Origin: Eledone cirrhosa | Taxonomy: Eukaryota | Length of the DNA stretch: 64,000 bases | NCBI GenBank assembly: GCA_964016885.1 | Contig: OZ024743.1 | Coordinates: 146,940,001-147,004,000 of the forward strand | Reading direction: 5' to 3' | Shown here: positions 17,071 to 51,047 of the stretch, in pieces | Layout of the letters: every line of letters begins with the position of its first letter | Numbering within the stretch: position 1 is the stretch's first letter | Program-made: the position numbers and the translations under genes | The notes under the pieces: model-generated | Told to the model about the DNA's origin: nothing | Database searches by the model: none | Seen by the model: only the letters and a program-made list of their open reading frames with translations

Positions 17071-17075
<5 letters not shown>

Positions 17076-17524
17076 GAAGTTATATTTAATTTGTTGGGAT
17101 ACAACAAGCAAATATTTTTATAACTGATATAAAGCACTCAACAAATTATTGGAGTAAAAATACGATATTAACAAATGGAAACTATATTTATAAAACCATA
17201 TTTATTTCATTATACATATTTCAAGGACACCAAGTGAAATTATGGTGTGCTTTCATCAGATAAAATATAATATAGAGCAGTTTTATAAATAAATATTGAA
17301 TTCACATACCCTTAAAGAATGCGAACATTTCTGTTGGAAGCTCCCGGGAGCTTCCAACAGTAATGGTTGCATTCTTTAAGGGTATGTCAATATTTATTTA
17401 TAAAACTGATCTATATTATATTTTATCTGATGAAAGCGCACCATAATTTGACTTGGTGTCCTTGAAATATGTATAATGAAATAAATATGGTTTTATAAGT
17501 ATAGTTTCTATTTGTTAATATATC

Positions 17525-17527
<3 letters not shown>
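17071..17527. mobile_element. Hammerhead-bearing fold-back element family 1, copy A
   Basis: Arms meet at the perfect palindrome ctgttggaagctcccgggagcttccaacag; left arm has an extra ~90 nt tail; hammerheads at 17204-17266 (-) and 17420-17482 (+). Confidence 0.88.
17420..17482 (+). ncRNA. Minimal type-I hammerhead ribozyme (family 1, representative)
   Basis: ATTTTAT CTGATGA AAGCGCACCA-loop-TGGTGTCCTT GAAA TATGTA TA ATGAAAT; predicted AUA cleavage after 17475. Confidence 0.78.
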
Positions 17528-17584
<57 letters not shown>

Positions 17585-17586
<2 letters not shown>

Positions 17587-17765
17587 CGAAGGAAATGTGG
17601 TAAGGAACCAGGTGGACCATAACGCACCAAAGTACTCAATACTTGAGGTAGTAGAGTGGGTAATAGGAACCAGTAAGACCCCGACAGCTGAGCTCAAGCC
17701 GTTTCGACGGCTCCAGAATTAGCCGTCGAAACGGCTTGAGCTCAGCTGTCGGGGTCTTACTGGTT

Positions 17766-17768
<3 letters not shown>
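17585..17768. mobile_element. Short fold-back element family 4, copy 2
   Basis: Perfect ~49 bp inverted arms around ccagaatt plus a one-sided tail; contains CGAAACGGC, possibly the 3' half of a hammerhead. Confidence 0.78.
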
Positions 17769-17808
<40 letters not shown>

Positions 17809-18640
17809 TATAAGGATAAATAACAAGGATTCAGTGCTGCATCATAACATATTTAATAACATAATACATGTTTCCCCAACGATCAGCTCGAGGCAAGACC
17901 TATTATAGATCGAACCTGACTATGTAATCGAAAGGTCATCAGATATGCTTAGTATATGAATTCGTCTTCGATTCAGTGTGTTCAAATCTCTAACTATTAG
18001 CTATCTATAGCACACATTAGCATCATGTTATTCTCTGCCCCTTCATTGGGTCAATTATCCCATCATCATCGTCAGTCTATCCACGAGGTAACGGCTGTCT
18101 GTCCTCCGGTCAAGCTGTCGTATGCATTCAGGCATGGGAGGCCGTTGGCCTGCCATTTACTGCTATATATATATATAATTGGAGGCTTAGTAAAATCGAA
18201 TCTTTGGCGGTGTGCAAGCAAATTCGACCTACGATATGAATGAGTTAGCAAAGCACTCGACAAGATAGGTCCTCAGAATAATAACATACGTTTAAATAGC
18301 TTGACAAATTGAACATTGTGGTAGGCAAAATCTAACACACAATACCAAAGTAACGAAAGACCTAACAGGTTGAAAAAAAAAAAATATATATATTTATATA
18401 AAATTATATGCTTGAAGAACAGTCAGACAAAATATATCCAATTTTTCTTCTCCTTAGTCGGCAGAAACTAACTAGATAAATAATCATTTAAACGGAGCTA
18501 TGTTTAAAACGTAACTTTGAAGAAATAACAGATAAATGTCACAGACTATCTATCCTCTGTGAGGAACAGTCAGATAAAATTTACCTAGTCTTTCCTCTTA
18601 GCCTGTACAAATTAACTAGACAAATAATCAATATATATAT

Positions 18641-18986
18641 GGAGGCACATGGCTTAGTGGTTAGAGCATTGGCCTTGCAATCGAAAGGTTGTGAGTTCAA
18701 TTCTCAGACCGGGCGATGTGTTGTTTCCTTGAGCAAGACACTTTGTTTCACATTGCTCCAGTTTACTCAGCTGTAGAAATGAGATGATAGGGACTGGGGT
18801 CCATATCATTCCACTGTAAAGTGGACGTGGAGGTGCCACGGCAAAAAAGCACCCAGCACTCACTGTAAATGAGGTTGGTGTTAGGAAGGGCATCCAGCTG
18901 TAGAAATCAAGCCAGCATCAGTTCCCGTCCCACCCTTGCAAGCAGGGAAAAAAAGCGGACGTAAAATGAAATGATGATGATGATGA
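18641..18986 (+). mobile_element. tRNA-derived SINE family B with RTE-type tail
   Basis: A box TGGCTTAGTGG, B box GAGTTCAATTC; last ~55 nt nearly identical to the RTE 3' end at 3742-3792. Confidence 0.88.
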
Positions 18987-19355
18987 ATGATATATAACTC
19001 CACTATCAAGATGTACATTTGTACATTTTTATACTACCTGAAAAGGAGGCCATAGGTTTAGCGTAATGTTAATGGAGGTTTTGTATTTTGTTATTCCTAG
19101 TTTCTAATCAGATTTCTGTGTCTAAAACAGATAGTCTGTCGTTGGGGTGTTTGGTTGGGTAGCCCCTGTGCAGTGTACTAGCCAGAGATTTCCACTAGTA
19201 TCCTTTACCCGTCACATTTGGGCCTGTTCCTGGTTGTTTATTTTGTGAGGAAGTAAATGCTAAGCTAATGGACTACCACACTGATGGTTTGTTTAAAATG
19301 ATGAAGGTACTTTTTGTAATCAATTCGGATCGAGAACGAGGCGTTCAGCTACTAA

Positions 19356-19570
19356 ATAATGATTTCTAGTATAGGCACAAGGCCAGTAATTTAGCGGGGG
19401 ACGGGGTCGATTAAATCGATCCCAGTACGTTACTGGTGCTTTATTTTATCGACCTCGTAAGGATGAAAGGCAAAGTTAACCTCGGCGGGATTTGAACTCA
19501 GACCGTAACGGAACGTAACTATATGCTGCAAAGCATGTTGTCCGATACACTATCAATAGTACAAATCCTC
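19356..19570 (-). mobile_element. SINE family A
   Basis: Reverse complement homolog of 22654-22838. Confidence 0.85.
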
Positions 19571-19756
19571 AATAATAATAATTATAATAATAATTATAAT
19601 AACAATAGTACTGATAATATAGGAGGGGTAACATTATTAAAATTCTGAAATACACAGTCGCTTGCTCACGTAAACATACGTACACGTGGACACACACATA
19701 CATACACACATGTATGTACATACATAAATCAACACACCCATGTATGCATTAGTAAG

Positions 19757-19945
19757 TAATTGTTTCTACTTTTGGCGCAAGGCCAACAATTACTCTAGTA
19801 CATTACTGGTACTTTATTTTATCGCCCCCATAAGGATGAAAGGCAAAGTTAACCTCGGTGGGATTTGAACTCAGTCCGCAAAGGGACGTAACTCTATGCT
19901 GGAAAGCATGGCGTCCGACTCTCTACCGATACTGTCAATCCACCG
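19757..19945 (-). mobile_element. SINE family A
   Basis: Reverse complement homolog of 22654-22838. Confidence 0.85.
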
Positions 19946-20342
19946 AGACATAAGCACTACCTGATACTGACATACGTAAAAAAGACTATTACATGGAATT
20001 AATAAGTTATTTATAAGTAATTGTTAATAACAAAATGCAATAAATATAAACATGAGAAAGTACATAGAAAATAAAATATATAAATGTAAAGGAATAAATA
20101 TAAAAAAGATAAAGTTAGTCGGACAATTAGTGGACGCTAAGAGTTTACAATATATGGAAGTCACAATGTTGAGTAAGTGAAGGATGACATGTAAACACTG
20201 CTTCTCGGTATACAATAGATTTATAGGGTACTGGTTACCTTGATATGGTGTGGAATATAAGGCATTAGATTTTTCGGGTAAGATTAAGCACTACTATCGT
20301 CACTATCCTAGTATAGCAGCAACGGTAGATATGCCATACATG

Positions 20343-20498
20343 CGGTGAATTGGCAGAGTCGTTAGAACGTCGGGTAGAATGCTTTATGGTATTCGTTCCG
20401 GCTCTCTACTCTCTGAGTTCAAATCCCATCGAGGTCAACTTTGCCTTTCAACCTTTCGAGGTCGATAAAAAAGTAGACTGCTAATAGTGGGGTCGATT
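20343..20498 (+). mobile_element. SINE family A, older subfamily
   Basis: ctgagttcaaatccc...gaggtcaactttgcctttca...ggtcgataaaa core. Confidence 0.8.
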
Positions 20499-21384
20499 CT
20501 TCCTCTATATTCTTTTTCATTTCCTCTTTCTCTGGAAGAAAAAATCCGCTGTACTCAGGCCTGGCGAAGGATGGGCTTCGCTCGCCCGGCTTAAAATGCC
20601 CAAGAAACGCCGTATGTCACTACGGCGTCCCTACGACTCTAGCAGGAAATACGGGGCCATACAGATACATTGATATGTCATGGAAGTGTGTACAAAAATA
20701 AGCACGTTGGTTTAGCTGAACTCAATATATATCTTAGTTTATTTACCAGTGGTCTACCTTTCCGATGGGACGAGAAAAGGATTATACGGTGGGATCCCCC
20801 GGGAGTGGTGGTGAGTGTTGATGTTTCAAGTTTCATTAGTGAATATTGTCGCAGAGTTACGCCCGAAATTGCGATCTTTGCTGGAAGACGAGTTGATTTA
20901 CGCTGGTTTGTTCCTCAATCTTCCAGCCAAAAATGAAAGTTTGTCTTTCTAATAATAGTTCGCTTAGAGGTGTTCAACATATATGAAGACGCATTCGGTT
21001 TACTCTTGGGATATCGAGAGGGTTGCCGATAGAGTAAAGGTCTCATTCCCTTCTTACATCATTAAGCCCTCAACAGTTAAGTAGCTATTTTCTTTTGTAT
21101 ATAATGTTGACCAACCGGACTGTGTATGTATCACTCCAATCAGATAACGATGATGCAACTAGATTCAAGCACTCAACGACATGAGTATCCTTCCAAATAC
21201 GATTTGATAGTCCATGACGGAGTATACATGACAGAGTATATATATATATATGTATTGTGGTAGAAGACTGGGAGGTTATATCCATAGTAGTAGATCACTC
21301 AGTCCATGGGGCGAGTTCGGTAGAAGTTAGTTCCCCAACAGTTAACATACAGATGTGTCCTCGAAAATGATTAATTAACTATTG

Positions 21385-21765
21385 TGGAACTGACTTAATA
21401 AATAATATAGTGTATAAATGTATAATTACCACTAAGGACTCTAATCGATCCTATATTGGATCCACATCTAATCCGTTTAAATCGAGATTTTATGCACACA
21501 CCCACAGTTTTCGAAACACAAGATTAGCTAATACCACTTCTTTAGCAGAAGGAGTTAATCATTGTAAAAAGAAGAAAATTAATTATAACCTAACTTGGAA
21601 GATTCTCAAAAGAGCCATTTCTTATTAGGCCAATAGAAAGGAGTGTGGACTATGTTCCCAAGAAATTTTTGAAATTACTAAATCGAAAGACATTCTATTA
21701 AATAAAGGCAGAATTAATTATCGCATGTAACCATAGAATTAGAAAGGCATTCAAGTATTATAAAT
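21385..21765 (+). pseudogene. GIY-YIG endonuclease fragment of a PLE
   Basis: IVYKCIIT...SYIGSTSNPFKSRFYAHTHSF...WKILK...CGLCSQE; one internal stop. Confidence 0.85.
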
Positions 21766-22423: not shown

Positions 22424-22648
22424 TTAATGATCTATATTGCCCCTTCCTATTTTTACTATTGGTCAATCTCAGCCTTGTTCTTAAAAGGTTACTTATTCAT
22501 ACATGTTTTTATATTCTTCAATAAACAAAACTCATTAATGATCTATATTGCCCCTTCCTATTTTTACTATTGGTCAATCTCAACCTTGTTCTTAAAAGGT
22601 TACTTATTCATACATGTTTTTATATTCTTCAATAAACAAAACTCATTA
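22424..22648. repeat. 111 bp tandem duplication
   Basis: Two near-identical copies starting at 22424 and 22535. Confidence 0.9.
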
Positions 22649-22653
22649 TTTTG

Positions 22654-22838
22654 GTGGATTGGCAGTATCGGTAGAGGGTCGGACGACATGCTTTCCAGCA
22701 TAGTTACGTCCCTTTACGATCTGAGTTCAAATCCCGCCGAGGTTGACTCTGCCTTTCATCCTTACGGGGTCGATAAAATAAAGTACCAGTAATGCACTGG
22801 ATAATTGCTGGCCTTGTGCCTAAAGTAGAAACAATTAT
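22654..22838 (+). mobile_element. SINE family A (tRNA-like head, Nin-like core)
   Basis: B box GAGTTCAAATC; core GTTGACTCTGCCTTTCATCCTTACGGGGTCGATAAAATAAAGTACC; ends AGTAGAAACAATTATT; at least 8 copies in the window. Confidence 0.88.
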
Positions 22839-23075
22839 TTCTGAAGACGGCGGGTAGGGAAGACGTATGTATATTTTCTTACTTTGATAATTTGTAATAT
22901 ATTTTATATAGATCACTAATAGAATGAACATACGGAGAACTACACCCCAGAAACGATCGTAAAATAATGAATTTTATTATGAATTACCCGTATTTTGTTT
23001 AATTTCATTGTTTTCACTATTTGTATTATATATATATATGTATATGTCTGTGTGTGTGTATGTATGTGTGTGTGC

Positions 23076-23480: not shown

Positions 23481-23572
23481 TATATATATATATAATCACT
23501 GTAATTCTTTTATCACATAAATCCTAATATATATATTGTATTATATGTATCATTTATCATTATTTATCATAC

Positions 23573-23760
23573 GGTGAATTGGCAGTATCGGTAGAGGGTT
23601 GGACGCCATGCTTTCTAGCATAGTTACGTCCCTTTACAGTCTGAGTTCAAATCCCGCCGAGGTTAACTTTGCCTTTCATCCTTACAGGGGTCGATAAAAT
23701 AAAGTACCAGTAATGTACTAGTTAATTGCTGGCCTTGTGCCTAAAGAAGAAACAATTATT
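23573..23760 (+). mobile_element. SINE family A with TSD
   Basis: Full copy flanked by attatttatcatac. Confidence 0.88.
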
Positions 23761-24281
23761 ATTTATCATACAGTTTATATTTTGTGGTTTTTAATTTTCA
23801 TGAAGCTATTATCATTTTATCATTGCTCTATGTATTTTCTGTTGTAAATGTTATTTTATGTTTTGCTTTTGTTTTACTATATCTTTAATTTCTTCTCTGT
23901 ATTTAACACTTCGATCATTGCTTTTCTTTTCCTGATATACACACTCACTCATCATCATAATACTTTTTTCAAACTCGTTTGTTAACAAAAACAACAACTG
24001 CAACAACAACAACAATAATGATTTCTAATGACAATAATAAGTACTCCTTTTGTTATATCTCAATGATTTTTTTTTAAATTTCTTAATTCTTAATCATTGA
24101 TTCTTATTATTCAAAGATAAAAATATTGTTAGATTTATCACGAAACGTTTAAATTCAAATTTGAAATTTCATATCCTCCAAATATATTGACATAGACATA
24201 AATGCAGACAGACAAATATAGATAAGCTGACACATATCTAGACACAGTTCTATCTATCTAGCTAGCTAGCTACCCCCCATC

Positions 24282-24372: not shown

Positions 24373-26753
24373 ATACTTTGGGAGGGTCATGTTGCCAATA
24401 AGAAACACACGCACCAGTTGCTTTCACTTCAATTTATTATAATAAATTTATAAATTTAGGAATTTATAAATTTCTGGTTGGTTGGTTGGTTCCACAACCA
24501 GATAGTTGTTTATATATTGTCAAAGTTCTTTCGTCACACATTCTGTGACCTCTTCAGTGACTGGGGATTCTTTTCTTTATTTTTGTGTCTCTCCTTTGTT
24601 CTGTCCTACGCCATTTTGTTTCTGTGTGTGTGTTGCGTGCTCAGTCTGCGCATGCGCCACATCCGGGTGTCTGTGTGTGTTTATATTTGTTTATTTATTT
24701 GTTTATTTACATGTTACCGGTTGGTTGTTTGTTCTATGTGTGTGTGTGTTTTCATTTTGTCCTTAATTGTAAGTTGTGATGTTGCTGTTCCACTCATATT
24801 TTCTATTTAATTTTGGTTGTAATTCTTTTATGTTTATTGCCTCTGTGATTTGTCTAAACATTGCGTCTTTTCTGTGTGTAGATTCTATTTTTATTTCTAT
24901 GTTCTCTAATTTACCCTTATGTTCTATTTTAGCATGTTGGTAGAGTACAGATGATTCTTTACTATCTTGAAGGTCTCGCCAGTGTTCATTTATCCGTTCC
25001 CCTACACTACGAGCTGTCTCACCTATGTACACTATATTTTTGTCTCTACATTGTCCTTCAGTACATCTTATGCTATACACTACATTTCTAGTTTTACAGT
25101 TAATATGGGGGCTTATTTTACAGGTTATACATTTCTTATCTATACAGGGGGTCTTTGGAAAGGGTATGTCTTGCTAATAAGTGTTTTTACGGAGGTACCT
25201 GGTCTTTCTACTATCTTAATATTGAGTTTATGTTTATCTAGGGCCCTTCTAAGCTAATTCACCTCTAGGGGTTGTATCGATGAACATTACACTCTGGTAT
25301 TTATTGCTATCATACCATGAGTTTATTCTATTAGCCTTATTCCTAGTTCTTTCTATTCTATTCCAAAATTTGCTCCTATACAAGGGGCAGGTCCCATTTG
25401 TGTCATTATTTACCAATTTTTCCCATTTGGTTCTGGCTCCTCTATACACTCTGATTCTATCTCTCTGATTGTAACCAGAGAACTGCATACGGTGGATGAA
25501 GTGTTGTATGTGTCTCTCTAGTTCTTCGGGGTTGCACATGCGGGACACGTTTCTCATCACCCGTACCAAATCCGCAATCAGTATGTTGATTTTGGTATGG
25601 TCCGAAACAGCCGAGTTTCGGTGGATCAGATGTTTGGAAGTCATGGGTTTGGCATAATGGGAATGGAGGATTTGTTTTTTGTTATTAATGGTATCTAACC
25701 AGAGCTGTGTGTCTAGTACAGGTAATCGATGGTTGGGGTGTTTACTTGGGTAGTCTATAGTAACTCTAATACTCTGGTGGATAGAGTTAGCTATTTGCTG
25801 GATGCTTTCCATTGTGTTTTTCTCTAGTTCCTGACTGTTCTCTAGTGGGGGTGTCTTAACTACGATGTTTATATCGTCAACGTAGCGGGAGTACATTATC
25901 AGGGTTAAGGGGTCTTCTAATTGTTCTTTAAGTTTAAGTTTAAGTCTACTTTTCTACCATACCATGAATAAGTTAGCTATGTCGCCTGCAATGCTAACAC
26001 CAATGGCTGCTCCTTCCTCTTGGGCATATGTTTTTCCATTAAATTTGAACATATGTTCCTTAGGGGTTAGTTTTATGCTGGCCCCTACCGCATGTGCAAT
26101 CATTTTCTTCAGTTCATCGTGGTTTTCGGGCGTCCGTATGGCTCTGGTCCACCCGTTCCATCTATCTGTGTGGGTTTTCTTGGCCATTGAGGTAATGGTA
26201 GGTAGTCTGCCTCTTGCTGGTCTTGTAGGACACAGGTTGCTAAGGTCATATGTGTCTAGGTAATTATTACTATAGGTAAGTTTAAGTAGGAGTCCCAGCT
26301 CACTGGTATCAATCCCACGGAACTCAACCTTGCTCTCACTGATCATTTCTACGCATTTCTCCACAGCAAAATCCACGTCAATAGATGGATACAGGGACAC
26401 AACATCCATACTACCTATTATGCAGTTTGTTAGGTCCCTAGATCGGTTACTCTCGCCGATTCTGCTGAGGAGGTCCTCCGTGTAGTCATATACATCTGGG
26501 GACATTTCAATGATGGGCGTATGATCAGGGAGAGGAAGTAGGACAGTCTGTAGTTACTAGCAATGTTAGCCCCACAGACTGGCCGTGTTGGTGGTCCCGT
26601 GACAGGGTCATTGCCCGTTTTATGGTCTAGGGACCTAACAAACTGCATAATAGGTGCGTGTGTTTCTTATTGGCAACATGACCCTCCCAAAGTATAACAA
26701 TATCGGTTTCAACACACGATTTCAGATAAAGAATCTTGCTAAACAAATTCAGA

Positions 26754-27455: not shown

Positions 27456-30400
27456 AAATAGATAACTTTCTTTTTATTTTCCACCAGGGCGTCAAAGAGT
27501 GGGACAAGTACAATGGGGGGAGTTTACACAAAAAGGCGTCTTCAATAAGGAGGAGGCAATAACAAAATATAAAAATATAAGATATAAAATATAACAAAAA
27601 TAAATTGAATAACAAAATCCTCAATAGGGAGGTCGCCCCCCCCCCCAAAAAAAAAGTGTGCAACCCTTCTCCTCGGGAGCACAGAGAGAGAGTGCTCCCT
27701 TGATCTTTTATCTTTCTCACCTACAGTCTGATGTAGAGTTAAGGCCCATTCACACAGGCCATTCTCGCCACTTTCACCCATCTTTCATAAAAACAGCTGG
27801 GGTGCAGCACCTCTCTCTCCATCCTGATTCATCTTCCGAAATAATATCGGAAGAAAAGAACAAGTTGTTGGCCAGAGAGAGAGGTGTCTGACCTCAGTCC
27901 TTTCAGACGCGTCCACCATACAACCTCTTTCACCATGGCTATTACGCACAGAAACACCGCCTCTCCTTCGTTTTTGAAGAGGGGAGGCGGCTTGATCGTT
28001 ACAATAGACTCGGTGGTCAACCGGATCGGTCCCACCCGTGACAGCAGTCGTTCGACATATCCCCACAGATCGGCAATGCCCGAGCAGTGTACCAATGCTT
28101 GTGCAACGGTTTCCTCTTCGCACACGCATCTGGGACAGATCTTTTTCGAGGGGTCCCTACCCGGGCGCCCGTGTCTGTAGAGCCTTTCTCGAACGGGCAG
28201 AGCCCCTCGGTAGCACTGCCAGGCCAGGGACCTCTGGAAGTTATCCATAGGTTCCGGGCTGAATGTCCTACCGAAGAGGTTGGCCAGTTCGTTTTCCTCC
28301 ATGTCTAGGGCTTCTCCGAGGGCGTCGTCGCACCTGCTAACCACCAGCCCTCTATAGAATGACGAGGTGGATTCTCCACTGACAGCCGGGTCCTCCTGCC
28401 AGAGAGCCGTGAGCGCCTGGGCACACTCGGTGTGCCAGGCGCCCAGCTTTCTCGGTCTTTGCTTGACCCAGGATTGAAGCTCGGTGAGCGAGACGAGTCT
28501 GGGAAAGGCTCGCCTCACAAACGGGGCCCACACCGGTTGACCGGTGAGGAATACCTGGAGGTGCCGTAACCTTAATGTGTGTTTGCGCATCATCAGCCAC
28601 GGTATCCCCAGCCCTCCTTTCGAAGGGTGTTGACAGCAGATGGATCTCCTCACCATAGGAGCCCGCTTCTTCCAAAGGAAGTGTGTGCGCTCCATTTTGG
28701 CGAGCGTTTCCCTTGGGCAAGGCACGACGGTCAGGCGGTAGTAGATGACGGACGCTATATACGTGTTCGCCACCTCCGCTCGACCTTTCAGGGACAGTTT
28801 GCACTCGGCCCACTTCTGGGTCAGTGCAAACACCCTGTTCGTTACCTCACCCCAGTTCTTCTCCACCTGGAGGTCTGGTCCGAACCAGAACCCGAGCAAC
28901 TTCACCGGGCCCTCCGTCCAGCGCCCGACGACGCCATCGGAGGGCATCGATCTGCCCCTCCACGTGCCGAGTTGCAGACGATCGACTTGTTCCGGTTCAG
29001 CTTAGCCCCTGTAAACCTTTCGTACTCCTCCAGTAAAGTGCCGATCGCCCCGATTTCCGATGCCGTCGACACCATTACTGTTACGTCATCGGCGTAGGCC
29101 GACACCGCTTTCCGTAATCCCGGTTCCAACGAGATTCCCTGCAACAACTCCAACTTCCGCAGCAGTGGCTCTAGAGTCATTACATACAGAAGGTAGGAGA
29201 GAGGGCACCCTTGTCGGATGGACCGCGTGATTTCGAACGGCTGCGAGAGGTAGCCGTTCACCTTGACCCTAGAGCAGACGCGGCTGCTGTGCATGGCAGT
29301 GATCCAGCCCCTGAAAACGGGTCCGAAGCCTACCGCCGCTAGCACCACATCCAGGTAACCATGGTCGACCATATTGAACGCTTTAGATTGATCCAAGTTG
29401 ATCAGGGCCCCACCAAAGCCGGGTTCGTTCCCAACCCTCTCTATGATGTATCGCATGAGGTGGAGGTTGTCATGGATGGACCTGGACTGGATATCACATG
29501 TCTGCGCATCTCCCACCAGGTTGCCCACGACAAGCGCCAACCTCTTTGATAGCACCTTGGCCAAAATCTGTAACTCTGTATTTAGCAGAGTTATGGGCCT
29601 GAAATTATTTATATCGTCCCCCTTGTTCTCGTCCTTCCTCACTAGCGTGACTACACCGTTGGTCACAGCACAGGGAATTCTCCCGTTCTGTTGCCAGTTG
29701 CAGTATACCGTCTCGAGGAGATCGGGGAACAAATCCGGCATAGCTAGATATAGTTCGTATGGAAGACCATCGAGACCCGGGGATTTGCGTTTGCCGCATT
29801 GGCTCAGCACGTCCTCTATCTCAGCGGCCGAAATCGGCTCCTCGCAGAACTTCGCCTCCCTGTCCGAGAGACGCAGCAGGCCGTCGAGGTATGGACCGAA
29901 GTCCACTTCGCCAACCGGTTCCCCGCCCCTTCCGAACAATCTGGCAAAGTGCTTTTGAAAAGCCTCGCACATCTGCTTAGGTTCAAGGATCACCCGTCCA
30001 TCCTGGTCTCGCAAAGACCGGATAGTGGATCTACTCCCTCTTTTGGCTTTTGTCACGCGGGCCCAGCTAACAGCTTTGGTCCCCTCGTTTCCCAGAGCAC
30101 GTATTTTGCTTCGGACGAAGCAACCTTCGTGTTTCGCGTCGAAGAACTGGCCCAGGGCCGTTCTCAACACTAGCACTCTGGCCACGTCGCCGCTTCTAAT
30201 TGCCTCTTCTACACTATCTACCAACTCCCTTTCCTTCCTATTTCTATTTGAGGCTAACTCCTTACTAAATTCTATAGAGACTACTCTAATCTCTCTTTTG
30301 AGAGATCCCCACCACCTGCTGTTGACGATGGCGCCCGTCAACCGCTCCTTAACTAAAGTGCTAATCCTGTCCCTGTAAGCTTTACTTGCCGGTAAGGAAA

Positions 30401-33178
30401 AGTTGAGCTTCCAGTAACCGGGTCCCTGTCTATGCGTTCTGTCAAAGTTGACTATGCAGGTCACTAACTTGTGGTCTGAATAGCCAACCATGAGCATTTT
30501 TGAACAATTTAAAAAGTCCTTATCCTTATTTCTAACTAAGAACCTATCTAGGTACGACCTAGATGATCCGCTGAGGTTTGCCCAAGTTCAGGTTGGCGCA
30601 GTCGGAAAATCTAGTCGATATCTATCGGCCAGGTCAAATCGACCGATTAACCCTTTGAGGCTGTTACACCCCTCTCTATCGAGACAGGCCCCTACGTAGT
30701 CCCAACGTGCATCTAGGATACCATTTCAGCCCACCACTAATATCAAGGAGCGGGACGTCCCTAGAAAAGTCTCCAGACGATGGAAGAAGTCCGGCCGCGT
30801 TGACCCGAAAGGGCCGTAGACGGCTACCAGCCTAAACGCTCCGCCTTCACCACTGCCAAGGTCCAGAACCACTAGTCGACTCTCCGGGTCCAAATGTACC
30901 GACTGTGTTGCGAGACCCAGATGTTTTTGCAGCAGAAGGAGAAACCCCACCCCCACCTCCGGGCTGACAGAGAGATGCGTGCATCTCAAAGTCATCAAAG
31001 GTGGGGGCCAGCTGTCGCATGTTGGTGATCCGGGCCTCGCAAATAACCATCACACCTATATGTTGTGACCTGAGGTCATTTAGAAGCATTGCTTGCTTCC
31101 AAGTTGAGCCCAGGCCACGCGCATTTAGACAACCTACTCTTAGCATAGCCATGTTGGTGGTGAAGAGAAAAGGCACTTACCTCTCTGCATCCCGGGTATC
31201 GGGCTGCACAATTTCCATGAGGGTGGGGGATGGGTTGTTGGGTTGGGTGGTGGATTGTGGAAGTATAGGGGCATCAGTGTGTTGTGTGGTTGGGGTGTTT
31301 GGAGTTGCGTGGGTGTTTGGGGAGGGGGTGGGGAAATTTTTAGGAGGACGCAGTTAATGGGCCCGCCGCAGGGGGGGGGGGGGGCACATCCTCTTTAAAG
31401 TTGTTTTTTAGTGTTTTATATGTGTCCTCTGGGGCATTAATCATTTTGAGGTGGGGGAAATCCCCTGCCTGGGTGAAGTTAGGCCCTTGGGTTTTTACTA
31501 AATTGTTGTTGTATACAATGTTTATCAGTTTTTTTTTTATTTCTTGTGTTTATGTATGTGTATGCATGTTTTTGTTTTTGTGTGGTGTGTTTTGTTTGCT
31601 GTTGTTGTGTGCTCTTTTGTGTTGGTGTCTGTGTTATGTTTTGGGGAGGGGTTTTTTTCATTTGTGTGTCTGAGGTGTGTTTTCTTTTTTTTCTTTTGAT
31701 TGTGTGGTAGTGCTCCTCTTCGTCTGAGGACGAACGAGGGTCATCTTCCGCGTTAGGGAGGAGGGGTAGACTTTCGGGTTGTGTTTGCGGTGCGGGTATT
31801 TTGGAAATTGTTTTTTTTTAGTGTGTGTGTGTGGGGGGGGGGGCAGTGTTTTGTTTTGGTTTGAGCTGTGGTTGTTGTTTTTTGTAGTGGTGGTTACGGT
31901 GATTGTGTTGGTTGCGCAATTGTTGGTGGTGTAGGCAGGATTGGGGTTTTCTTTTTAAGTTGAGGACAGACAGCCCTCGGGTCACCTCTGGCTCCACAGA
32001 GGTAACACGAGGGCCGCCTACTCTCAACGGTAATGTTGATAAAAGTTTGATCATCCAGTATGACGCGTTGAGGGATCTGGGCGATCCTTTCGGGCCTCAT
32101 TTGAACTACAAGTTCGAGGCCCGTTCCACTGAACGCGTCACCCGATGCCTTTCCCATGGATATTAGTGTGTCATCGTCTAGGTCCAGGAAACCTGTCAAT
32201 ACCCATCATATGTCCATAATCGGCAGGATGGTGTGAATTTTTATTTTTTGTGTCCTTCTACCCATGTACGTAGGGTAGAAGATGTATGCGGTGGATGTGA
32301 TTGGTTTTATTGACAATTTCGCTGCCGTGTCCCTGTCCTTCATGAGAATGGATAGACTCCCGTAGAGTCTATCCTTCTGAATGAATATGATGTCTTTCAT
32401 GACATCTTTTAAAACCAGCTCTATCTCACTCTGTGATGGTTGAGCTGGTTTTTTGCTTTTGTTTGAGACTGTCCTAAACATGACAATGTTTAGGAGTCTC
32501 TGGCTTTTTAGTTCCGGGGGGGGGGGGGGGCGGGGTTCGAAAATGATCCATTTTCCACGTACACTATGTATTTTTTGGCATCTGCCAGTAGCTCCTTCGC
32601 TTTGCTTATATCTACTGGCAGATAGTCGAGTGTTTTCCTTGCAGTCTGGGCGAAGGAGACCTTTTCCTTGTTCGTGTTGCTGTTGTAGTTGGTGGTGTTG
32701 TTGTTATCATTGTTGTTGGTGTTGTTGTTTTTGTTGTCTTTATTGTTGCTGTTGTTGTCGTTGTTGTTGTTGTTTTCGGTTTCTTGGTTTCTACTTTTTG
32801 GCACAAGGCCAGCAATTACCCAGTTTATTACTGTGTAGTTGTGGCTACATCAAGTTGTCGGTCAGCAGGTCGGTCATCTGCTGCTGTGACAGTGGCAGGG
32901 GGAAGCTGTGAGTTTAGTTTCCCTTTTCTTTCTTTGAATGTTGGTGAAGATGCTTCAGCCATTTTTATCAAAGTAGGAAATTTTTCGAAAGATAACATTT
33001 TTTTCCCCCAACACAATTTCGCCTAAAGGCGTAGAATAATTTGAGAGACTGACCAGATCAAAATTTGACCTGGCAGTCCCTCTACAAAATGGTACAAAAA
33101 TGAAAGTTTACAGTTTGGAATTTCTATGGAAATTTAGGCAGAACTTACCCAGCAAGTTTTACGCGTGTGTCCATCCCA
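27456..33178 (-). mobile_element. Near full-length L1/Tx1-clade LINE, disrupted
   Basis: ORF1 relics ~33016-31177 (CYLCGARGDPRAVC knuckle-like motif); ORF2 from 31152: LNARG, SDH, PGYWKLN, SPGLDG, FRPITLLN, LDQSKAF, RQGCPLS, AYADD, CPRC...H...C; GATA repeats at both ends. Confidence 0.95.
28902..30497 (-). pseudogene. LINE ORF2 reverse transcriptase, largest open segment
   Basis: 531 aa ORF with the non-LTR RT motifs through YADD; frameshifted on both sides. Confidence 0.93.
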
Positions 33179-36702: not shown

Positions 36703-36898
36703 CCACAAACCCTCCATCTCAATTCTACTTTTGAAAAGCATAAGAACTGCGAAATCGGTAAAGGAACCAAATAAATATTCTTAAAAAGACTGCAATTGCA
36801 TTTTCGATTTCATCTTTTTTCCATATACTTTCACTTGTGTAGGACACCTCGTTTTTATTTTCATTTTGGAAAAAAACCCTCATTTTCTTATATATATA

Positions 36899-37269
36899 TA
36901 CAATATATTAACAAATGGAAACTATATTTATAAAACCATATTTATTTTATTATACATATTTCAAGGGCCACCAAGGTAAATTATGGTGCGCTTTCATCAG
37001 ATAAAATACAACCGTTAAGGTTGTCTTTTTTCAGAGTATGTCAATATTTATTTATAAAACAAATCTGTATTGTATTTTATCTGATGAAAGCGCACCATAA
37101 TTTGCCTTGGTGGCCCTTGAAATATGTATAATAAAATAAATATGGTTTTATAAATATAGTTTCCATTTGTTAATATATTGTATATTTACTCCACCAAAGT
37201 GTTGAGTGCTTTATATCAGTTATAAACATTTTTAAGCTTGTTGAATCCCAACAAATTAACTATAACCTC

Positions 37270-37272
<3 letters not shown>
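36899..37272. mobile_element. Hammerhead-bearing fold-back element family 1, copy B
   Basis: Hammerheads at 36944-37007 (-) and 37074-37137 (+); tail on the right arm only. Confidence 0.88.
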
Positions 37273-37332
<60 letters not shown>

Positions 37333-38190: not shown

Positions 38191-38268
38191 AGTGCAGCAG
38201 TATCGAGTTGTCGTATTAACTACAATAAACAATTATATATCTCAATCAGTTGCTAAACATTTAAAACA

Positions 38269-38454
38269 AATAATTGTTTCTACTTTAGGCACCAGGCCAG
38301 CAATTACCCAGTGCATTACTGGTACTTTATTTTATCGACCCCGTAAGGATGAAAGGCAAAGTCAACCTCGGCGGGATTTGAACTCAGATCGTAAAGGGAC
38401 GTAACTATGCTGGAAAGCATGGCATCCGACCCTCTACCGATACTGCCAATCCAC
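38269..38454 (-). mobile_element. SINE family A with TSD
   Basis: Full copy flanked by taaaacaaataat. Confidence 0.88.
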
Positions 38455-39147
38455 TAAAATTTGCTAAAACAAATAATATTTCATTTTTGTTGTTGGTGTT
38501 TAGCTCCAGATCAAAGGTGTTTCAACTTTAGTTTAGGCACAGTGTATTTAGGGACTCTATTTAATGTATGTTATTTCTTTTAAAGATGGCTAGTTGTGTG
38601 ATTTGTGAGAGATTTAGCTGCTATAGTTGCTATTTTTTATTTGATGATTGAATGAGATATAAAGGTTCCTTCATTAGTTCTGGTTGATCAATGGTCAGAG
38701 TTTTATCAAAATAGATTTTGAAAAGTAACATAACAAACATAAAGCAATGCTTTCAAGTCAATAGATAAAAAAAAAAAAATGCTTTTTGTTTTCATTCATA
38801 ATTTGATCCTTTTTGTTGTTGTTTTTAAGTAATAAATAATTTAAATATATAACTCTTTTGTTTTTCATTTTCAAACAGTTTGCATTATCATTAATTACAA
38901 TTTATAATAATTTGCACCAGAATTAATTTTTCAACAACACATACAAACAGACTCATGCATATGCCATTCCCTCTTAAATAACAAAATGTAAAAATACAAG
39001 CCTCATAAAATAATGCATATACAAATTTACACTAACAATTCATATGAATACACACAACTATGCAACTACTGGGATATATTCAATGATAAAAACGTTGTTG
39101 TAGAGTATGTTTCTTTGGCTCATATTATGTAGATCTATGGAGTATCC

Positions 39148-39410: not shown

Positions 39411-39667
39411 TTTTGCAGTGGGAGGGGATGAGTGCATATTGTCAATATGCTACAGCTTCGGCTTGTACCCGTGGGAAGTCGGGTCTTCTGTATTACTGCA
39501 TAATGCCAGAGGTCTTGGTCCTGTAATATTAAACAATTCAATGTTTAATAGCTTTTAATTTTATCAGTGTGTTATGGCTGTGCCAATGCTACACAATAGT
39601 CAATAAGTGGTTGATGTTGACAGATATATGAACATATATTTGGTAAATAATATTTAAGGGTATGACT

Positions 39668-39847
39668 TGGCAGTATCGGTAGAGGGTTGGACGCCATGCT
39701 TTCTAGCATAGTTACATCCCTTTACAGTCCGAGTTCAAATCCCGCCGAGGTTAACTTTGTGTTTCATCCTTACGGGGTCGATAAAATAAAGTACCAGTAA
39801 TGTACTGGGTAATTGCTGGCCTTGTGCCGAAAGTAGAAACAATTATT
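39668..39847 (+). mobile_element. SINE family A with 17 bp TSD
   Basis: Flanked by tatttaagggtatgact at 39651 and 39844. Confidence 0.9.
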
Positions 39848-41392
39848 TAAGGGTATGACTGGATACATGTAAAGGTGTTGATTGCCAAAGCACTGTTCAG
39901 AACATTTAAAAACATTCCCAGGCAAATAATTCATTTGTAAAATTTCTTATTTATGGAAAATACAAATTTATTTATCCAATCATTAGAGAATATTGAGGTT
40001 TTATTTTATTGTTCTCTTTTTTATTAATAAACATTATCTAACTTTTTACTCACATACTTGATAATATGTAATTTAACTTACAAATCATCATCATCATCAT
40101 GATTAATAAACATTATCTAACTTTTTACTCACATACTTGATAATATGTAATTTAACTTACACAATAGTTATTATATTACCAGCTCTATCCTGGTTTTAGA
40201 AAAGGTACACTGTATCCCTGAATGTTCTAAGAAGTGACTGAAAGGGCATCCAACAATATAACACTGCCTAAAAAGATATCCAAATCAAGCCAATATGGGA
40301 AAGCAGACATAAAATGATGATGATGTTAATAGGTTATAACAACTATCAAGATATCCAAAGATTTGGTTATGTGGATAGTTGTCTGTTGAAAGATGAATAT
40401 ATTTTCATAAAACTTATCTTAAATGCAGCACATATACCATATTTGTATTGGTTCTTACTAGTTAAGATTTTCATAATATCTTATTGGTTAAGTAGCATTG
40501 CAGTGCAAACAAAGCTCTGGCTTATAAAATACTTGAATTCAAAAAGTAAATTAAAGGACTTGTTAATTATATGTCTTTTTTCTGTTTTTGCAGTTACTAC
40601 ACCTATACATAAGGCCTATTTACAGTTAGAATGATTATGCAAATGAAATCTAAATATTATCCTTTCATCAGTGATTGGTTGTGAACTGATGGCCATTTAT
40701 TCGTTCTGCAATGTGACATTCTAACAGCTTGTTACTCGTCCCACTGTAAAGCTAGTTGTTCTTTTAGATTTAACCTGTGACATGGTTTAATATGTTTAAA
40801 ATGTTGGTTGATAATGTAGAAATATAATGTTATGAGATTTCTGTGGTGTTTTATTTTAGGTTTTATGTAACTCATAATCACTGCTTTATTTTTATGAGCT
40901 GGGAATAAATATGAGAGCTTGCAATACTAAAGTGATATTTAATATACCATATAATGCTACGATGAAGGCAGTAGTATGAAATGTTGAATAGTAGAGGTTA
41001 TTGGTAATGTTTGTAAGAGTATTAGGAATGAATATATTGTTATTAATAATACTGTGTTTATTTACTTAGAGGTGTCATCTGCATAAAAATCAACAATCTT
41101 ATGAGAGTAAACATATTTATGCAAAATTTCAAAAATCTAATTTGAAATACTATTTCAATGATGAGTGAACAAGATTATTTCAGTGGTTATTATTTTAATT
41201 ATTTCAGCAAGTACAAAAGTGTATACGGTTTTGAGGAGGTTTTATAAGAGTGAAATATCTCTGCCATTTTCTAACATAATTACTGAAATGATTAAAATAA
41301 TATTAATCATTGAGCTAATGTTGCCTTTTTCTTAAACTAGAAGTATTTCTAATTCGATATTTGATGCTCTACACTATATTTACATATATTCT

Positions 41393-46106: not shown

Positions 46107-46741
46107 TTCTTTAGCAATATGGTCATGGAATGGTTAAAACACTGCACAAAGTGAATGCTAAGGGCTATTTCATTCTAGAATGTTTTAGTTACTTAATAAA
46201 GTAATTATAAATATGTTTCAATGGAAAGAAATCTTACCCTAAACATATGTTTAGAACATGCTAAGAGTTGAACCAGTAGGTATAAATATAGGATAGCATA
46301 CTCAAGTAAAAAATTTAGGCAACAAATTCCTTCACTTCATTTACCAGTTCTATCTATGTTCTTGTCATAATATTTAAGCAAAACATTTATCTCCCTGTGA
46401 AAATTGAAAAGAAATTCAGAGAATAAAACCAATAAATAAACAAACAAAAACAAAACAAAGATAATAACAAATTAATGACAAAAGAACATTTGAATAAATT
46501 CTAAAAATGAAATTCCAAATAACAATTTTAGTTTTAAATAATATTGCAGAAATAAATTTGTTATTAAATAAAAAAAAAAACATACAAAAACATCAGTTTT
46601 GAAAATATAAATATATTTGAAAAAACAAAGAAAAACAAAATCCAATTGTGTATGGAATTTTACATATGTCATTTCATCAAGAGATTTCAAGATATCTATA
46701 TCAATATATTTGTTTTAAGTTTTGCTGTTTCATTGTTGTTG

Positions 46742-46781
<40 letters not shown>

Positions 46782-47104
46782 AGTAGAAACAATTATTATT
46801 ATTATTATTAATTCTTTTTTTAATGAAACTAGTCGAAAGTTTCTAAATTAGCTGAGCAAAATATAGCTGTCAGTCATCCAACTAGTGGGAATATATGTTT
46901 TTCTAATTTTTGCATTTATATTTATATTTTTTTACATATTAATTTTTTTTTTATTGTATGTTCATGTAGTGTAGACCCTGTCATTATAGGGACCAGTTTT
47001 AATTGTAAAACATTAGATGACAAGCAAAAATTCAAGCAAAATATTTCACAATAATTTGAAAGACTTCTATTCATTTTAATTATGTTTATCATTGTTACTG
47101 CTGC

Positions 47105-47143
<39 letters not shown>

Positions 47144-47562
47144 CATAGTTATACTTTTGTCTTTATATCTGTATATAAATCATTAAATTTTCTCCATAAC
47201 AATCTCCCTCGCTTAGTGCCAAACATTTCAATAGTTCTAGAATTTATTATTTCAAATCTCTGGACTTCATTACATCATTTTTATAAACACATTTTACTCT
47301 TCCAATCAGTTGATATTTTTACAATAATGTTTTATTTATTTATTTCTGAGGATGTATGTGTGTGCATGTGTAATCCTGAGCATATTCTTGAAGTGTTCTT
47401 ATGATTAGGCATATGTATGTTGTAGGATTATAATATTTTACTTAAAAAAAAAGAAGAAAAACACATCATAAATACAGTCAGGTTTATATGCCTTCTCCTT
47501 CGCCAAAATTTAATCAATCTCTTTTTATATATATATGTATATATATATATACACACACACAT

Positions 47563-47606
<44 letters not shown>

Positions 47607-47824
47607 TTATTGTGTGTATATAATGTATATAAATACATATCAATTATATATACATATATATGTATATTGTATGTGTATTCGTGAGGTATCCCATGTTAGG
47701 GCGAAAACAAATTTTGTTTTTATATCGTATATATTTTATTGCTAGAACTGAAGGTACAATTCCCAAATTGGCTGACCAGTCTCATCTTAGTTAAGATATA
47801 TATATATATTTTTATGTATATATA

Positions 47825-49823
47825 GTTATACTTGGGGAGGGTCATATTGTTGTAATAATATTGCCAGAAATAATAACAGAACACACTCACTGTTTGGTTG
47901 GTTTTCGCTTCTGTATGTTTTATATCTCCATAGTTAATTTATTTGGCCATCAATGTTTATCACTGACTGACCAACGGTCAAAAATACAGATATAAATACA
48001 TATAAATATAGTCTTTCATTGCACATCTGCAACATCATCAGTGGTACTATTATGTTTCCTCCTGTTGTATTGTATGTCTACGCCATTTTTATTTTATCTG
48101 TTTATTTATTTATTTTTGTTTGCGTGTGTGTATAGTGTTTGGTGTGTGTGTTTGCGTTTGGGTGACTGTATTTTGCTTATTGTATTCTATCTTAGTTTAT
48201 TATGTGTGTTTATATGTGTCTCTTGTTATTGTGCTTGTGTATATATTTATTTATTTTATTTATTTATTTATATTTCTCTTAAGTCAGTATTGTTTGTTTG
48301 GGTGTTGTTGTTATTCCATTCATTTTTTCTGTTTAGATTTGGCATTCTAAGCCCTATTTCGCTTGCTTCTCTGATTTGCCTACCTGTTGGGTCATTTCTA
48401 TGTTTAGATATTATTTTAATTTCTATGTTGTCTATGTTACCATCATGTTGTCGCGTGTTCATATAGTACTGAACCGTTTTTTGGTCCTTTTAGTTCCCCC
48501 TGTGTTGGTCTATTCTTTCTCCTATGCTTCGAGCTTACTCACCTATGTATGTAGCTGTCATGTTTCTGCAAGTACTTTCTGTACATCTTATGCTATGGAC
48601 AACATTTCTAGTTTTACAGTTTATCTGGGGGTTTAATTTACATATAACACATTTCATATTAGCATAGTGGGTTTTCTTAAAAGTGTATGTTTTGCTGATT
48701 AGGGATTTTATGGTAGTTCCTGGCTTATTTACCACTTTAATCTTTAAGTGGGCCATTCTACATTGGTTAGCTAATTTCCCTCCAGGTGTAGCATCCACGA
48801 ACATGACACTCTGGTATCTCTGGTTGTCGTACCATGAGGTGGCTTTCCCTATCTTATGTTTAGTCCTATCTAAGTTATTCCATGATTTGCTCCTGTATAA
48901 TGGGCAAATTCCTTTCATGTCTAGTTCTATGAGGGTCTTATACTTCTCTGTGGCTCCTTTGTGTACTCTGATTCTGTCTCTTTGGATGTAGCCAGAGAAC
49001 TGCATGTGGTTGATGAAGTGTTGGATGTGTCTTTCCATTTCTGTTGGGTCGCACATGCGGGACACGTTCTTCATCACTCGTACCAAGTCTGCGATCAGAA
49101 TATTAAACTTAGCACTACTGGTCATTGCTGAGTTTTTGAGTATCAGGTATTTGGAGGCCATGGGTTTAGCATAGTGTGAGTGGAGAATTTGGGCCCTCTC
49201 ATCTATAGTGTTAATCCAGAGTTCCGTGTCTAATACAGGTAGTCTATTGTTAGGGTAGTCAATAGTTACAGTTATACTCTGGTGTATGGAGTTAGCTATC
49301 TGCTGGATGCTTTCCATTGTGCTATATTCTAAATCATGTTCATTAGTACTCTCTTGTGGGGGTGTCCCATGGGAGTCTTTTTTGCCATTGAGTTTATGAT
49401 GGGGGTCTACCTCTAATGGGTCTACTAGGGCAGAAATGGCTAAGGTCATGGCTGTCTAGGTACTCGGTGTCATAAGTAAGTCTAAGTAGGAGGCCCAGTT
49501 CATCTGTGTCGACGACGCAGAACTCCACCTCTCACTGATTATTTCCACACATTTTTCCGCAGCAAAATCAATGTTAATGAATGGATACAGTGATACGATG
49601 TCCATACTGCCTACTATGCAGTTAGGAGGTTTTTGTTTTTATTACACTCATTTATTCTGCTGAGGAGGTCCTCTGTACTGTCACATACATCTGGGGACAT
49701 CTTAATTATGGAGTATGTTCTGTTATTATTTCTGGCAATATTATTAGAACACTATGAGCCTCGCCAAGTGTAACAATATTTGTTTCGACACACGATTTCA
49801 TATCAAAACCCTTGCAAAACAAA
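47825..49823 (-). mobile_element. Penelope-like retroelement, second diverged copy with internal RT deletion
   Basis: LPVLDTELW, HYAKPMASK, TYIGE; inverted 3'-end copy 49711-49778 plus tail 49779-49823; hammerhead core at 48009-48045 (CTGATGA..TTGCA-GATG-TGCAA.GAAA). Confidence 0.9.
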
Positions 49824-49837
49824 TATATATATATATA

Positions 49838-50278
49838 TACGATATATTAACAAATGGAAGCTATATTTATAAAACAATATTTATTTAATTATACATATTT
49901 CAAGGGCACCAAATTAAATTATGGTGTGCTTTCATCAGATAAAATATAATATAGATCAGTTTTATAAATAAATAAATAAATATTGACATACCCTTAAAGG
50001 ATGCGACCATTCCAACAGAAATGGTCGCATTCTTTAAGGGTATGTCAATATTTATTTATTTATTTATAAAACTGATCTATATTATATTTTATCTGATGGA
50101 AGCACACCATAATTTAATTTGGTGTCCTTGAAATATGTATAATGAAATAAATATGGATTATAAATATAGTTTCCATTTGTTAATATATCGTATTTTTACT
50201 CCAATAATTTGTTGAGTGCTTTATATCAGTTATAAAAATATTTGCTTGTTGTATCCCAACAATTTAAATAGAACTTCT

Positions 50279-50283
<5 letters not shown>
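49838..50283. mobile_element. Hammerhead-bearing fold-back element family 1, copy C
   Basis: Hammerheads at 49883-49945 (-) and 50086-50148 (+, core mutated to CTGATGG); tail on the right arm. Confidence 0.87.
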
Positions 50284-50338
<55 letters not shown>

Positions 50339-50587
50339 TATATATATATTCACATACACATATGTGCATATATGTACATACAATTATCTATATAAATACT
50401 CACACACACACACATATATATATGTGTGTGAATACAGTTACTGCCAATTCGCTGTTCTAAGCATCCAGTGCTGTTAAAATGGCCCGTCTCGTGTTGAGTT
50501 GTATTTCATGGTTAAGACGAGTATAATGTGCAGAGTGTAACCAATCAAAGTCAATTTGCAACACACACACACACATATATATATATA

Positions 50588-51044
50588 TATGTAGAAGTTA
50601 TATTTAATTTGTTGGGATATGTAGAAGTTATATTTAATTTGTTGGCAAATATTTTTATAACTGATATAAAGCACTCAACACATTTTTGGAGTAAAAATAC
50701 AATATATTAACAAATGGAAACTATATTTATAAAACCATATTTATTTCATTATACATATTTCAAGGACACCAAAGCAAATTATGGTGCGCTTTCATCAGAT
50801 AAAGTATAATATAGATCAGTTTTATAAACAAATATTGACATACCCTTAAAGAATGCGACCAAGAATGCTTCCAACCGACATGGTCGCATTCTTTAAGGGT
50901 ATATTAATATTTGTTTATAAAACTGATCTATATTATATTTCATCTGATGAAAGCGCACCATAATTTGCTTTGGTGTCCTTGAAATATGTATAATGAAATA
51001 AATATGGTTTTATAAATATAGTTTCCATTTGTTAATATATTGTA

Positions 51045-51047
<3 letters not shown>
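50588..51047. mobile_element. Hammerhead-bearing fold-back element family 1, copy D
   Basis: Hammerheads at 50743-50805 (-) and 50937-50999 (+, stem I ATTTCAT/ATGAAAT); tail on the left arm with a 30 bp terminal duplication. Confidence 0.87.

Follow-up and report, generated by a model that had tools for sequence, protein, structure and literature searches.

Published traits of Penelope-like elements (PLEs) include an inverted and truncated copy of the pseudo-long terminal repeat (pLTR), a one-sided tail, a bias for (TA)n targets and hammerhead ribozymes (PMC8557442, PMC3846280). Their integration reaction has been called undefined (PMC8557442), and no obvious mechanism was seen for regeneration of the pLTR (PMC2377424). 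We analyzed a stretch of 64,000 nucleotides (nt) from Eledone cirrhosa (contig OZ024743.1, positions 146,940,001 to 147,004,000; the window), in which four palindromes, W1 to W4, carry opposed hammerhead motifs, and compared them with the described elements. The palindromes are probably, at a likelihood of roughly 0.7, 5'-truncated head-to-head insertions of an autonomous Hydra-clade PLE into (TA)n, with both ends of the cut target priming on the 5' leader of the element RNA.

The Hydra clade, which includes Hydra-1_Obim of Octopus bimaculoides, is diagnosed by a C-terminal GIY-YIG endonuclease (EN) that lacks CCHH and has CxxC and CxH motifs beside a conserved E and N; it is further marked by DKT in place of DKG, an RWK motif and a CxCx5C linker (PMC8557442). 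Head-to-head pLTRs with an optional tail, as in the palindromes studied here, are found in Adineta vaga and in Drosophila virilis Penelope, for which a transcript from the upstream pLTR, an initiator-like (Inr-like) site and an intron beginning 46 nt downstream are described (PMC3846280, PMC2377424). For Poseidon PAc of Anolis carolinensis, the protein was shown in vitro to nick and extend both strands of AT-rich DNA from two reverse transcriptase (RT) start sites that bound the tail, with the RNA signals for the protein lying 3' of the start sites and with insertion independent of hammerhead cleavage (PMC11167929).

The link to PLEs that an earlier note on this DNA had drawn is borne out by a coding parent, whose pLTR and leader match the arms in the window at 89-96% identity. 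At one genomic locus (L091) a frameshifted RT-endonuclease open reading frame (ORF) is enclosed by direct repeats, the pLTRs, at a spacing of 4,226 bp, and two further loci (L210 and L211) carry intact ORFs of 742 amino acids with an RT plus a GIY-YIG-type domain at the C terminus; the parent unit measures 3.7-4.2 kb. The L210 and L211 ORFs are thus single ORFs for a telomerase-related RT with a YRDD core, as in EN-bearing PLEs, and pLTRs, an inverted 5'-truncated copy or a one-sided tail are seen at L091, L092, L211 and L214. The protein has RWR, SDKT (SDKTNN), GLYRDD, CxCx5C (CNCRNKSNC), CxxC..E and N..CxH motifs and no CCHH, and 90% or more of 97 homologues retain the EN residues Y622, Y635-G637, R646, C699-C702, E705, N717 and C726-H728. 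An AlphaFold model (predicted local distance difference test score 89.8) had telomerase RT as its top Foldseek match (E 2e-9), consistent with the RT assignment, and the C-terminal EN is assigned to the GIY-YIG type provisionally, from these motifs. A search of PDB sequences with the parent protein gave nothing useful; its closest named relatives are in Argonauta hians.

These features agree with the Hydra clade in the single RT-EN ORF, the RW, DKT and GLYRDD motifs, the CxCx5C linker, the EN motifs without CCHH, the hammerhead within the pLTR, the (TA)n targets, the inverted 5'-truncated copy and the one-sided tail (PMC8557442). The parent differs in having RWR where the clade has RWK, a tail of 88 nt rather than 30-40, and a unit of up to 4.2 kb against "generally <3 kb", which the same paper gives as a tendency, not a definition; the greater length reflects a long 3'-untranslated region (UTR). 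The Hydra reference proteins in the supplement rows of PMC8557442, compared by eye, show the same motifs; the hammerhead and leader of the present family are unlike the Hydra-1_Obim rows there, and it is a different family. By motif comparison, the parent would be a new family of the known Hydra clade. Hydra-type coding pieces of other families, 40-50% identical, were also present in 5 of 40 random 10-kb stretches (L053, L060, L071, L076 and L088), and the genome search gave 91,283 first-look candidates, 101 of which were scored. The clade is heavily amplified in this genome, and the very high copy number of Hydra-type sequence sets it apart from the clade as described.

The four copies lie where the earlier note had placed them (Table 1), and its readings of pLTRs and of (TA)n targeting were right. 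On either strand each copy presents an antisense arm followed by a sense arm, that is, head to head. All short arms share one end, ...TTAATATATYGTA, and the long arm runs 88 nt further (about 90 had been given); this extra segment is the PLE tail and corresponds to the parent 5'-UTR, ending about 50 nt before the ATG. We call the end of the short arm S and that of the long arm T. The centres of W2 and W4 are asymmetric, and both arms of W3 contain an extra TTTA run.

The pairing of S with T was examined at 81 loci taken from the first 100 hammerhead matches on one contig, which gave 86 arm records: 44 near pairs, 33 single arms and 9 pairs that were far apart or separated by (TA)n. The near pairs comprised 38 S/T, 2 S/S and no T/T combinations, and 4 with a damaged end. 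Intact two-armed copies therefore join one S with one T in 38 of 40 cases, whereas independent ends would give about half (p 7e-10 for the excess). The T arm starts at parent position 4124 or later in 18 of these 38 S/T pairs, which leaves no overlap of the arms on the parent, and fold-back copying of the T arm cannot have produced the S arm there. At 60 loci selected by their junctions and counted by hand, T arms of 101 nt or less were more frequent than S arms of that length (15/51 and 4/46, p 0.011), as if RT starting from T had often stopped within the tail. One rare S/S palindrome (L188), whose arms share two private variants, may derive from a template with only the first of the two hairpins described next.

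Behind each start site stands a small bulged hairpin, ACTC-stem-TT-GAGT behind S (hairpin 1) and GCTC-stem-TY-GAGC behind T (hairpin 2), each followed by GCTTTA and each preceded 3-5 nt upstream by TAT (UAU in RNA). Every subfamily that has an ORF start shows the twin hairpins with TAT, and they stand twice in an unrelated Hydra family, that of L053; hairpin 2 lies behind every T site of coding copies and is missing from the stubs, as we call the short leader copies. The motif RCTC..GAGY occurs 12 times in the window against 2.25 in shuffles, and 35 times in 400 random kb against 14.1, or 19 against 0.67 when TAT is required in front. Two fold-backs of another family, which flank W1, obey the same rule, with the hairpin in the long arm and a short arm that ends at the TAT before the hairpin position. 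That family also adjoins copies L036, L166, L234 and L274.

The two arms of a copy also tend to share their sequence variants. Sister arms were identical in 29 of 56 pairs, 19 of which had been chosen for likeness to W1, against 13.8 (maximum 22) in within-subfamily permutations, and they shared 16 rare variants against 1.4 (maximum 5); 1 of the 16 was an A-to-G change, giving no editing footprint among them. A nearest-neighbour comparison (3.0 vs 1.6 differences) was set aside as unfair, being a minimum over 243 arms. Shared rare variants, together with the self-complementary centre CTCCCGGGAG common to at least 86 copies, are what one would expect if a single cDNA begun at T folded on this micro-palindrome and copied itself, the second arm then being trimmed by the endonuclease at S. 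One published proposal invokes self-priming to account for PLE palindromes (PMC3846280), and another invokes resolution by the endonuclease to account for the tail (PMC8557442). We nevertheless consider such a fold-back quite unlikely, since the two arms share no parent segment in 18 S/T pairs out of 38, long copies (L094, L168, L180) have unequal arms from different parent segments, S and T each occur also as the sole 3' end of an insertion, and some sisters carry different common haplotypes. The work on Adineta vaga and D. virilis either invokes self-priming or does not settle how the pLTR is regenerated (PMC3846280, PMC2377424), and here the non-overlapping arms argue for two priming events.

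Genome-wide counts of exact matches, which are lower bounds with unequal coverage of subfamilies in a genome of 3.0 Gb, gave at least 8,872 hammerhead arms, at least 5,576 S junctions into (TA)n, at least 2,871 T junctions, at least 3,069 read-throughs at S, at least 82 copies of the sequence just behind T (hairpin 2) and at least 86 of the exact centre of W1. A 22-mer reaching just upstream of this centre had 1,802 exact matches, often as opposed or tandem pairs no more than 5 kb apart, and random sampling of 40 ten-kb stretches recovered the parent family in 2, which does not allow a precise copy number. Arms range from about 20 nt to the full unit, centres vary between copies, and the stubs follow the subfamilies of the coding parent, with 94-96% identity to its leader.

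An excess of short pieces over ORF starts of about 100 to 1 (8,872 vs 82) is what the "abundant non-autonomous ribozyme element" of the earlier note would predict, namely a unit of about 280 nt like a retrozyme or a short interspersed nuclear element (SINE), or the palindrome itself, spread in trans by PLE enzymes. The sharp 5' edge of the arms (see below) mimics a fixed unit, one tandem of two edge-to-T units exists (L102), and retrozymes have been described as non-autonomous PLE derivatives (bioRxiv 10.64898/2026.07.22.740005). Against this stand the coding parent and the identity of the stubs to its leader, the variation of arm lengths and centres (that of W1 in only 86 copies against 8,872 arms), the absence from the stubs of hairpin 2, which coding copies have behind every T site, and the absence of any long tandem array of the short unit from the loci examined; we judge the proposal improbable. 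A non-LTR retrozyme is a non-coding unit of fixed length in tandem arrays with a lineage of its own, whereas we found variable centres and lengths, a coding parent, one dimer and, at the loci examined, no tandem arrays of monomers. Long inverted arms in (TA)n might also suggest a miniature inverted-repeat transposable element (MITE) or other fold-back DNA transposon that ends in terminal inverted repeats and targets TA, an identity that is next to impossible given the unequal ends, the variable centres and a sequence that is the leader of an RT-coding element; matched terminal inverted repeats around a fixed interior were not found. The L102 dimer (L102:1329-1893), joined by a short TA run, is a possible seed of a retrozyme-like array.

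The copies are probably truncations of an autonomous PLE. This possibility, which the earlier note had named as random 3' truncation, largely applies, but they are truncated on the 5' side, and not at random. Arm 5' ends pile up at parent position 3952 (CACT/ATCC), an edge that is conserved whereas the sequence upstream differs between subfamilies. Terminal arms numbered 127; 29 fall short of the edge, and of the 98 that reach it 58 stop within 8 nt, while the four 8-nt bins upstream of the edge zone hold 2, 1, 1 and 0 arm ends. Both arms of W1 start at 3954, 2 nt inside the edge, and the distances from S (187 nt) and from T (275 nt) to the edge add up to about 460 bp, the size of W1. Hairpin-2 arms, which begin further downstream, behave differently: 1 of the 14 scored ends at the edge, 11 run past it and 2 fall short, giving stops in 1/12 against 58/98 for the others (Fisher p 0.001). 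This set came from 30 of 82 loci that were fetched, with an anchor that captured only some; at further hairpin-2 loci viewed by eye, about eight arms ran past the edge and about ten ended well short. The conserved edge and the rarity of stops there in hairpin-2 arms are new here.

We infer that the edge may be the RNA 5' end, a candidate transcription start. A conserved splice-donor-like G/GTAYGT lies 40 nt downstream of it, as the intron of D. virilis Penelope begins 46 nt after a transcript start in the upstream pLTR (PMC2377424). From this donor-like site (parent 3992, W1 17380 onward) possible acceptors lie inside or behind the hammerhead, at 4046 or 4175, and splicing could remove the ribozyme from the mRNA. 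The candidate joint was not seen in contigs of 2 of 4 runs whose kind is not on record, a result uninformative on splicing or expression; contigs of those same two runs have loose ends at S and T. The edge might otherwise be an effect of sequence on ordinary truncation of the same parent, either an RT stall or a microhomology hotspot at TATCC, and 124 exact junctions do join (TA)n directly to TATCC through TAT microhomology, with a CCGG palindrome at the edge. We regard this as unlikely, because hairpin-2 arms meeting the same sequence stop there so rarely and because flanks on both sides are equally AT-rich yet hold few ends.

With a strict type-I hammerhead descriptor, 6 motifs were found in the window, all within the four palindromes, against a mean of 0.04 and a maximum of 1 in 100 dinucleotide shuffles. 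The two motifs of W3 were missed because of a CTGATGG core and a stem I mismatch; with them, the eight cores counted in the earlier note, one of them mutated, are accounted for. The motifs have the type-I core (CUGANGA, GAAA, UH) and three stems, with 7-8 bp in stem I, 9 bp with one mismatch in stem II, and a near-palindromic stem III of 2-3 pairs. The triplet is AUA, and the cut predicted earlier after 17475, with stem III formed from TATGTA, would be correctly placed. A short palindromic helix III and a long helix II are likewise typical of minimal PLE hammerheads and non-LTR retrozymes (PMC4209133; bioRxiv 10.64898/2026.07.22.740005). No hammerhead family of Rfam matched the window (E<=1) or positions 17400-17500 (E<=10), and the hammerhead-constrained fold lies 3-4.5 kcal/mol above the minimum free energy. 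Minimal PLE hammerheads cleave poorly and need a dimer or protein (PMC4209133, PMC11167929), and the same is expected here (see also bioRxiv 10.64898/2026.07.22.740005); the two motifs of a palindrome are opposed and so cannot form a sense-sense dimer.

Covariation had been claimed for stem I, where the ATTTCAT/ATGAAAT pairing proved to be a one-copy change (a C-G pair in 1 of 243 arms); stem II does show compensatory changes, which fall between subfamilies: 27 of these arms have T-A in place of C-G, and 11 have G-C in place of A-T. No excess conservation of the core was found (mismatch 2.2% against 1.9% at other non-polymorphic sites, 136 arms), and 0 of 17 common polymorphisms lay in it (p 0.07). 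Since the core decays like its flanks among copies while stem II shows compensatory changes, the data fit selection of the hammerhead in source elements only. The idea that the antisense motif would pair with and block the sense ribozyme is plausible in silico, as the predicted fold of a full W1 transcript is a single long duplex (-266 kcal/mol) and a read-through transcript from either strand, with the antisense arm first, would trap the sense motif; we saw no sign of selection for it or of its use. Two opposed ribozymes are a by-product of arm length, given that the long arm consists of tail alone, with no hammerhead, in 18 S/T pairs out of 38. Intact hammerheads in both arms imply templates that were uncleaved or re-ligated, and a pile-up of 5' ends at the predicted cut (4086) was not established: T arms fell in 4084-4095 in 5 cases out of 69, of which two were alignment artefacts, and none of 69 S arms did.

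In the insertion mechanism that we favour, the element protein would bind the two hairpins, S would be primed by one nicked (TA)n strand and T by the other, each cDNA would run toward the RNA 5' end at the edge, and the two would be joined head to head by microhomology; full run-off of both would yield 187 + 275 nt, about 460 bp. The hammerhead would be a passenger inside the copied leader, uncleaved in these templates, and the stubs, which lack hairpin 2 and the ORF, are probably dead ends. The in vitro reaction of PAc, with nicking and extension of both strands, two RNA start sites bounding the tail and no need for hammerhead cleavage, offers a close precedent (PMC11167929). In PAc the start sites lie inside the ORF and have no homology to the target, unlike here, and that paper reports no S/T pairing, twin hairpins, 5' edge or two template classes. 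Twin priming of L1, attributed to Ostertag and Kazazian (2001), reportedly also lets two target ends prime on one RNA to give a 5' inversion. The present element differs from that process in that its second start is fixed and its arms often overlap on the template.

Several points weigh against this mechanism. Single arms make up 33 of the 86 records, 40 of the 127 terminal arms go past the edge, the edge is a transcription start by inference, and T arms that stop early end throughout the tail and do not peak sharply at S. Between some sisters there are differences at common sites (4 in L012, 2 in W1, 2 in L009), which means that one RNA molecule does not explain all copies and that the template is at times a second RNA or the other pLTR; the variants that sisters share could stem from later conversion. 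Priming by PAc used no RNA-DNA homology (PMC11167929), whereas a UAU match is assumed here. The samples were the first pattern matches on one contig and not random draws, and in the pairing sample L177 was counted twice and L144/L145 look like one event. Finally, Pfam gave no RT or GIY-YIG match for the parent protein, and no GIY-YIG structure was among the Foldseek matches listed.

A stall or microhomology hotspot should act alike on both arm classes, and their difference at the edge suggests two templates. Tentatively, and with somewhat less than even odds, a linear capped mRNA would give the leader-only palindromes, while full-length copies and their pLTRs would come from a circular or multimeric template without a 5' end there. 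Priming of the linear mRNA close to its 5' end, at two sites marked by hairpins, would leave thousands of stubs resembling strong-stop products; the template of long copies would most simply be a hammerhead-cut, circularised monomer read round more than once, a circle being favoured, not shown, by the existence of tandem arrays (L299/L300). The repeated tail end of W4 is likely to be re-priming at T, which the edge-to-T dimer of L102 also fits. In the PLE literature searched, with most subscription papers and Repbase outside the search, we found neither a leader-stub or two-template reading nor a paper combining Penelope and strong-stop as a PLE mechanism.

Table 1. Palindromic copies, their parts and other repeats and remnants, in window positions.
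Feature	Position	Strand	Remark
W1	17072-17528		Probable head-to-head insertion of Hydra-clade PLE leader
W1 T arm	17072-17347	-	
W1 S arm	17344-17528	+	
W1 tail, 88 nt	17072-17159	-	Parent 5'-UTR from start site S to T, shortly before the ORF
W1 hairpin 1, bulged	17155-17136	-	Within the 88-nt tail
W1 minimal type-I hammerhead motif	17203-17267	-	Predicted cut at 17211
W1 minimal type-I hammerhead motif	17419-17483	+	Predicted cut after 17475
W1 candidate splice donor, G/GTATGT	17380-17387	+	Conserved; mirror copy 17311-17304 (-); 40 nt downstream of 5' edge
W2	36898-37273		Diverged subfamily copy
W2 S arm	from 36898	-	
W2 T arm	to 37273	+	
W2 hammerhead motif	37008-36943	-	
W2 hammerhead motif	37073-37138	+	
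W2 hairpin 1	37188-37207		
W3	49837-50281		Adjoins end of ORF remnant 48302-49824
W3 S arm	49837-50011	-	
W3 T arm	50010-50281	+	
W3 hammerhead motif	50093	+	Core mutated (CTGATGG)
W3 hammerhead motif	49938	-	Stem I mismatch
W3 hairpin 1	50198-50217		
W4	50588-51045		
W4 T arm	50620-50861	-	
W4 S arm	50867-51045	+	
W4 tail-end repeat, 30 nt	50588-50619		
W4 hammerhead motif	50803-50745	-	
W4 hammerhead motif	50936-51000	+	
Fold-back of another family	16867-17030		Same (TA)n cluster as W1; long-arm hairpin at 16935 (-), TAT 5 nt in front
Second fold-back of that family	17587-17768		Hairpin at 17657 (-); short arm ends at TAT before hairpin position
Second hammerhead-bearing palindromic family	10129-10878, 51242-51857		CTGAYGA...GAAA, stem III CTAG; rearranged internal pieces
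Old, diverged palindrome	55638-55994		Hammerhead-like core at 55888 (+)
Related ORF remnants	24776-26750, 48302-49824	-	About 70% alike; N-terminal Cys-rich endonuclease-like part, YVDD
Non-LTR retrotransposon remnant	27832-30587	-	RVT_1 (E 1e-22) and zf-RVT
Mariner-like transposase remnant	9059-9957		Terminal inverted repeats of about 100 bp
SINE-like repeat, about 190 bp	216-401, 19412-19945, 20339-20475, 22648-22840, 23568-23772, 38268-38460, 39663-39849		At least 7 copies
Young inverted repeat, 246 bp	4307-5220		97%; duplicated inner segment; in (TA)n; no hammerhead core

The remaining window features are listed in Table 1. The RCTC..GAGY hairpin was not found in the second hammerhead-bearing palindromic family. 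The two related ORF remnants, for which Pfam was blank, look by their motifs like PLEs of Naiad type.

The element itself is ordinary, one more family of Hydra-clade PLEs; its copies, which number in the thousands, are useful in documenting the integration reaction. With intact ORFs, two base-exact starts, a pair of small hairpins and a 5' end predicted for the RNA, this reaction is directly testable in the published in vitro assay. For annotation, the family serves as a warning against taking 400-bp palindromes of this kind for MITEs, for viroid-like ambisense RNAs or for a SINE family. If true, the reading with two RNA templates would jointly explain the inverted repeat, the one-sided tail, the regeneration of the pLTR and the retention of the hammerhead.

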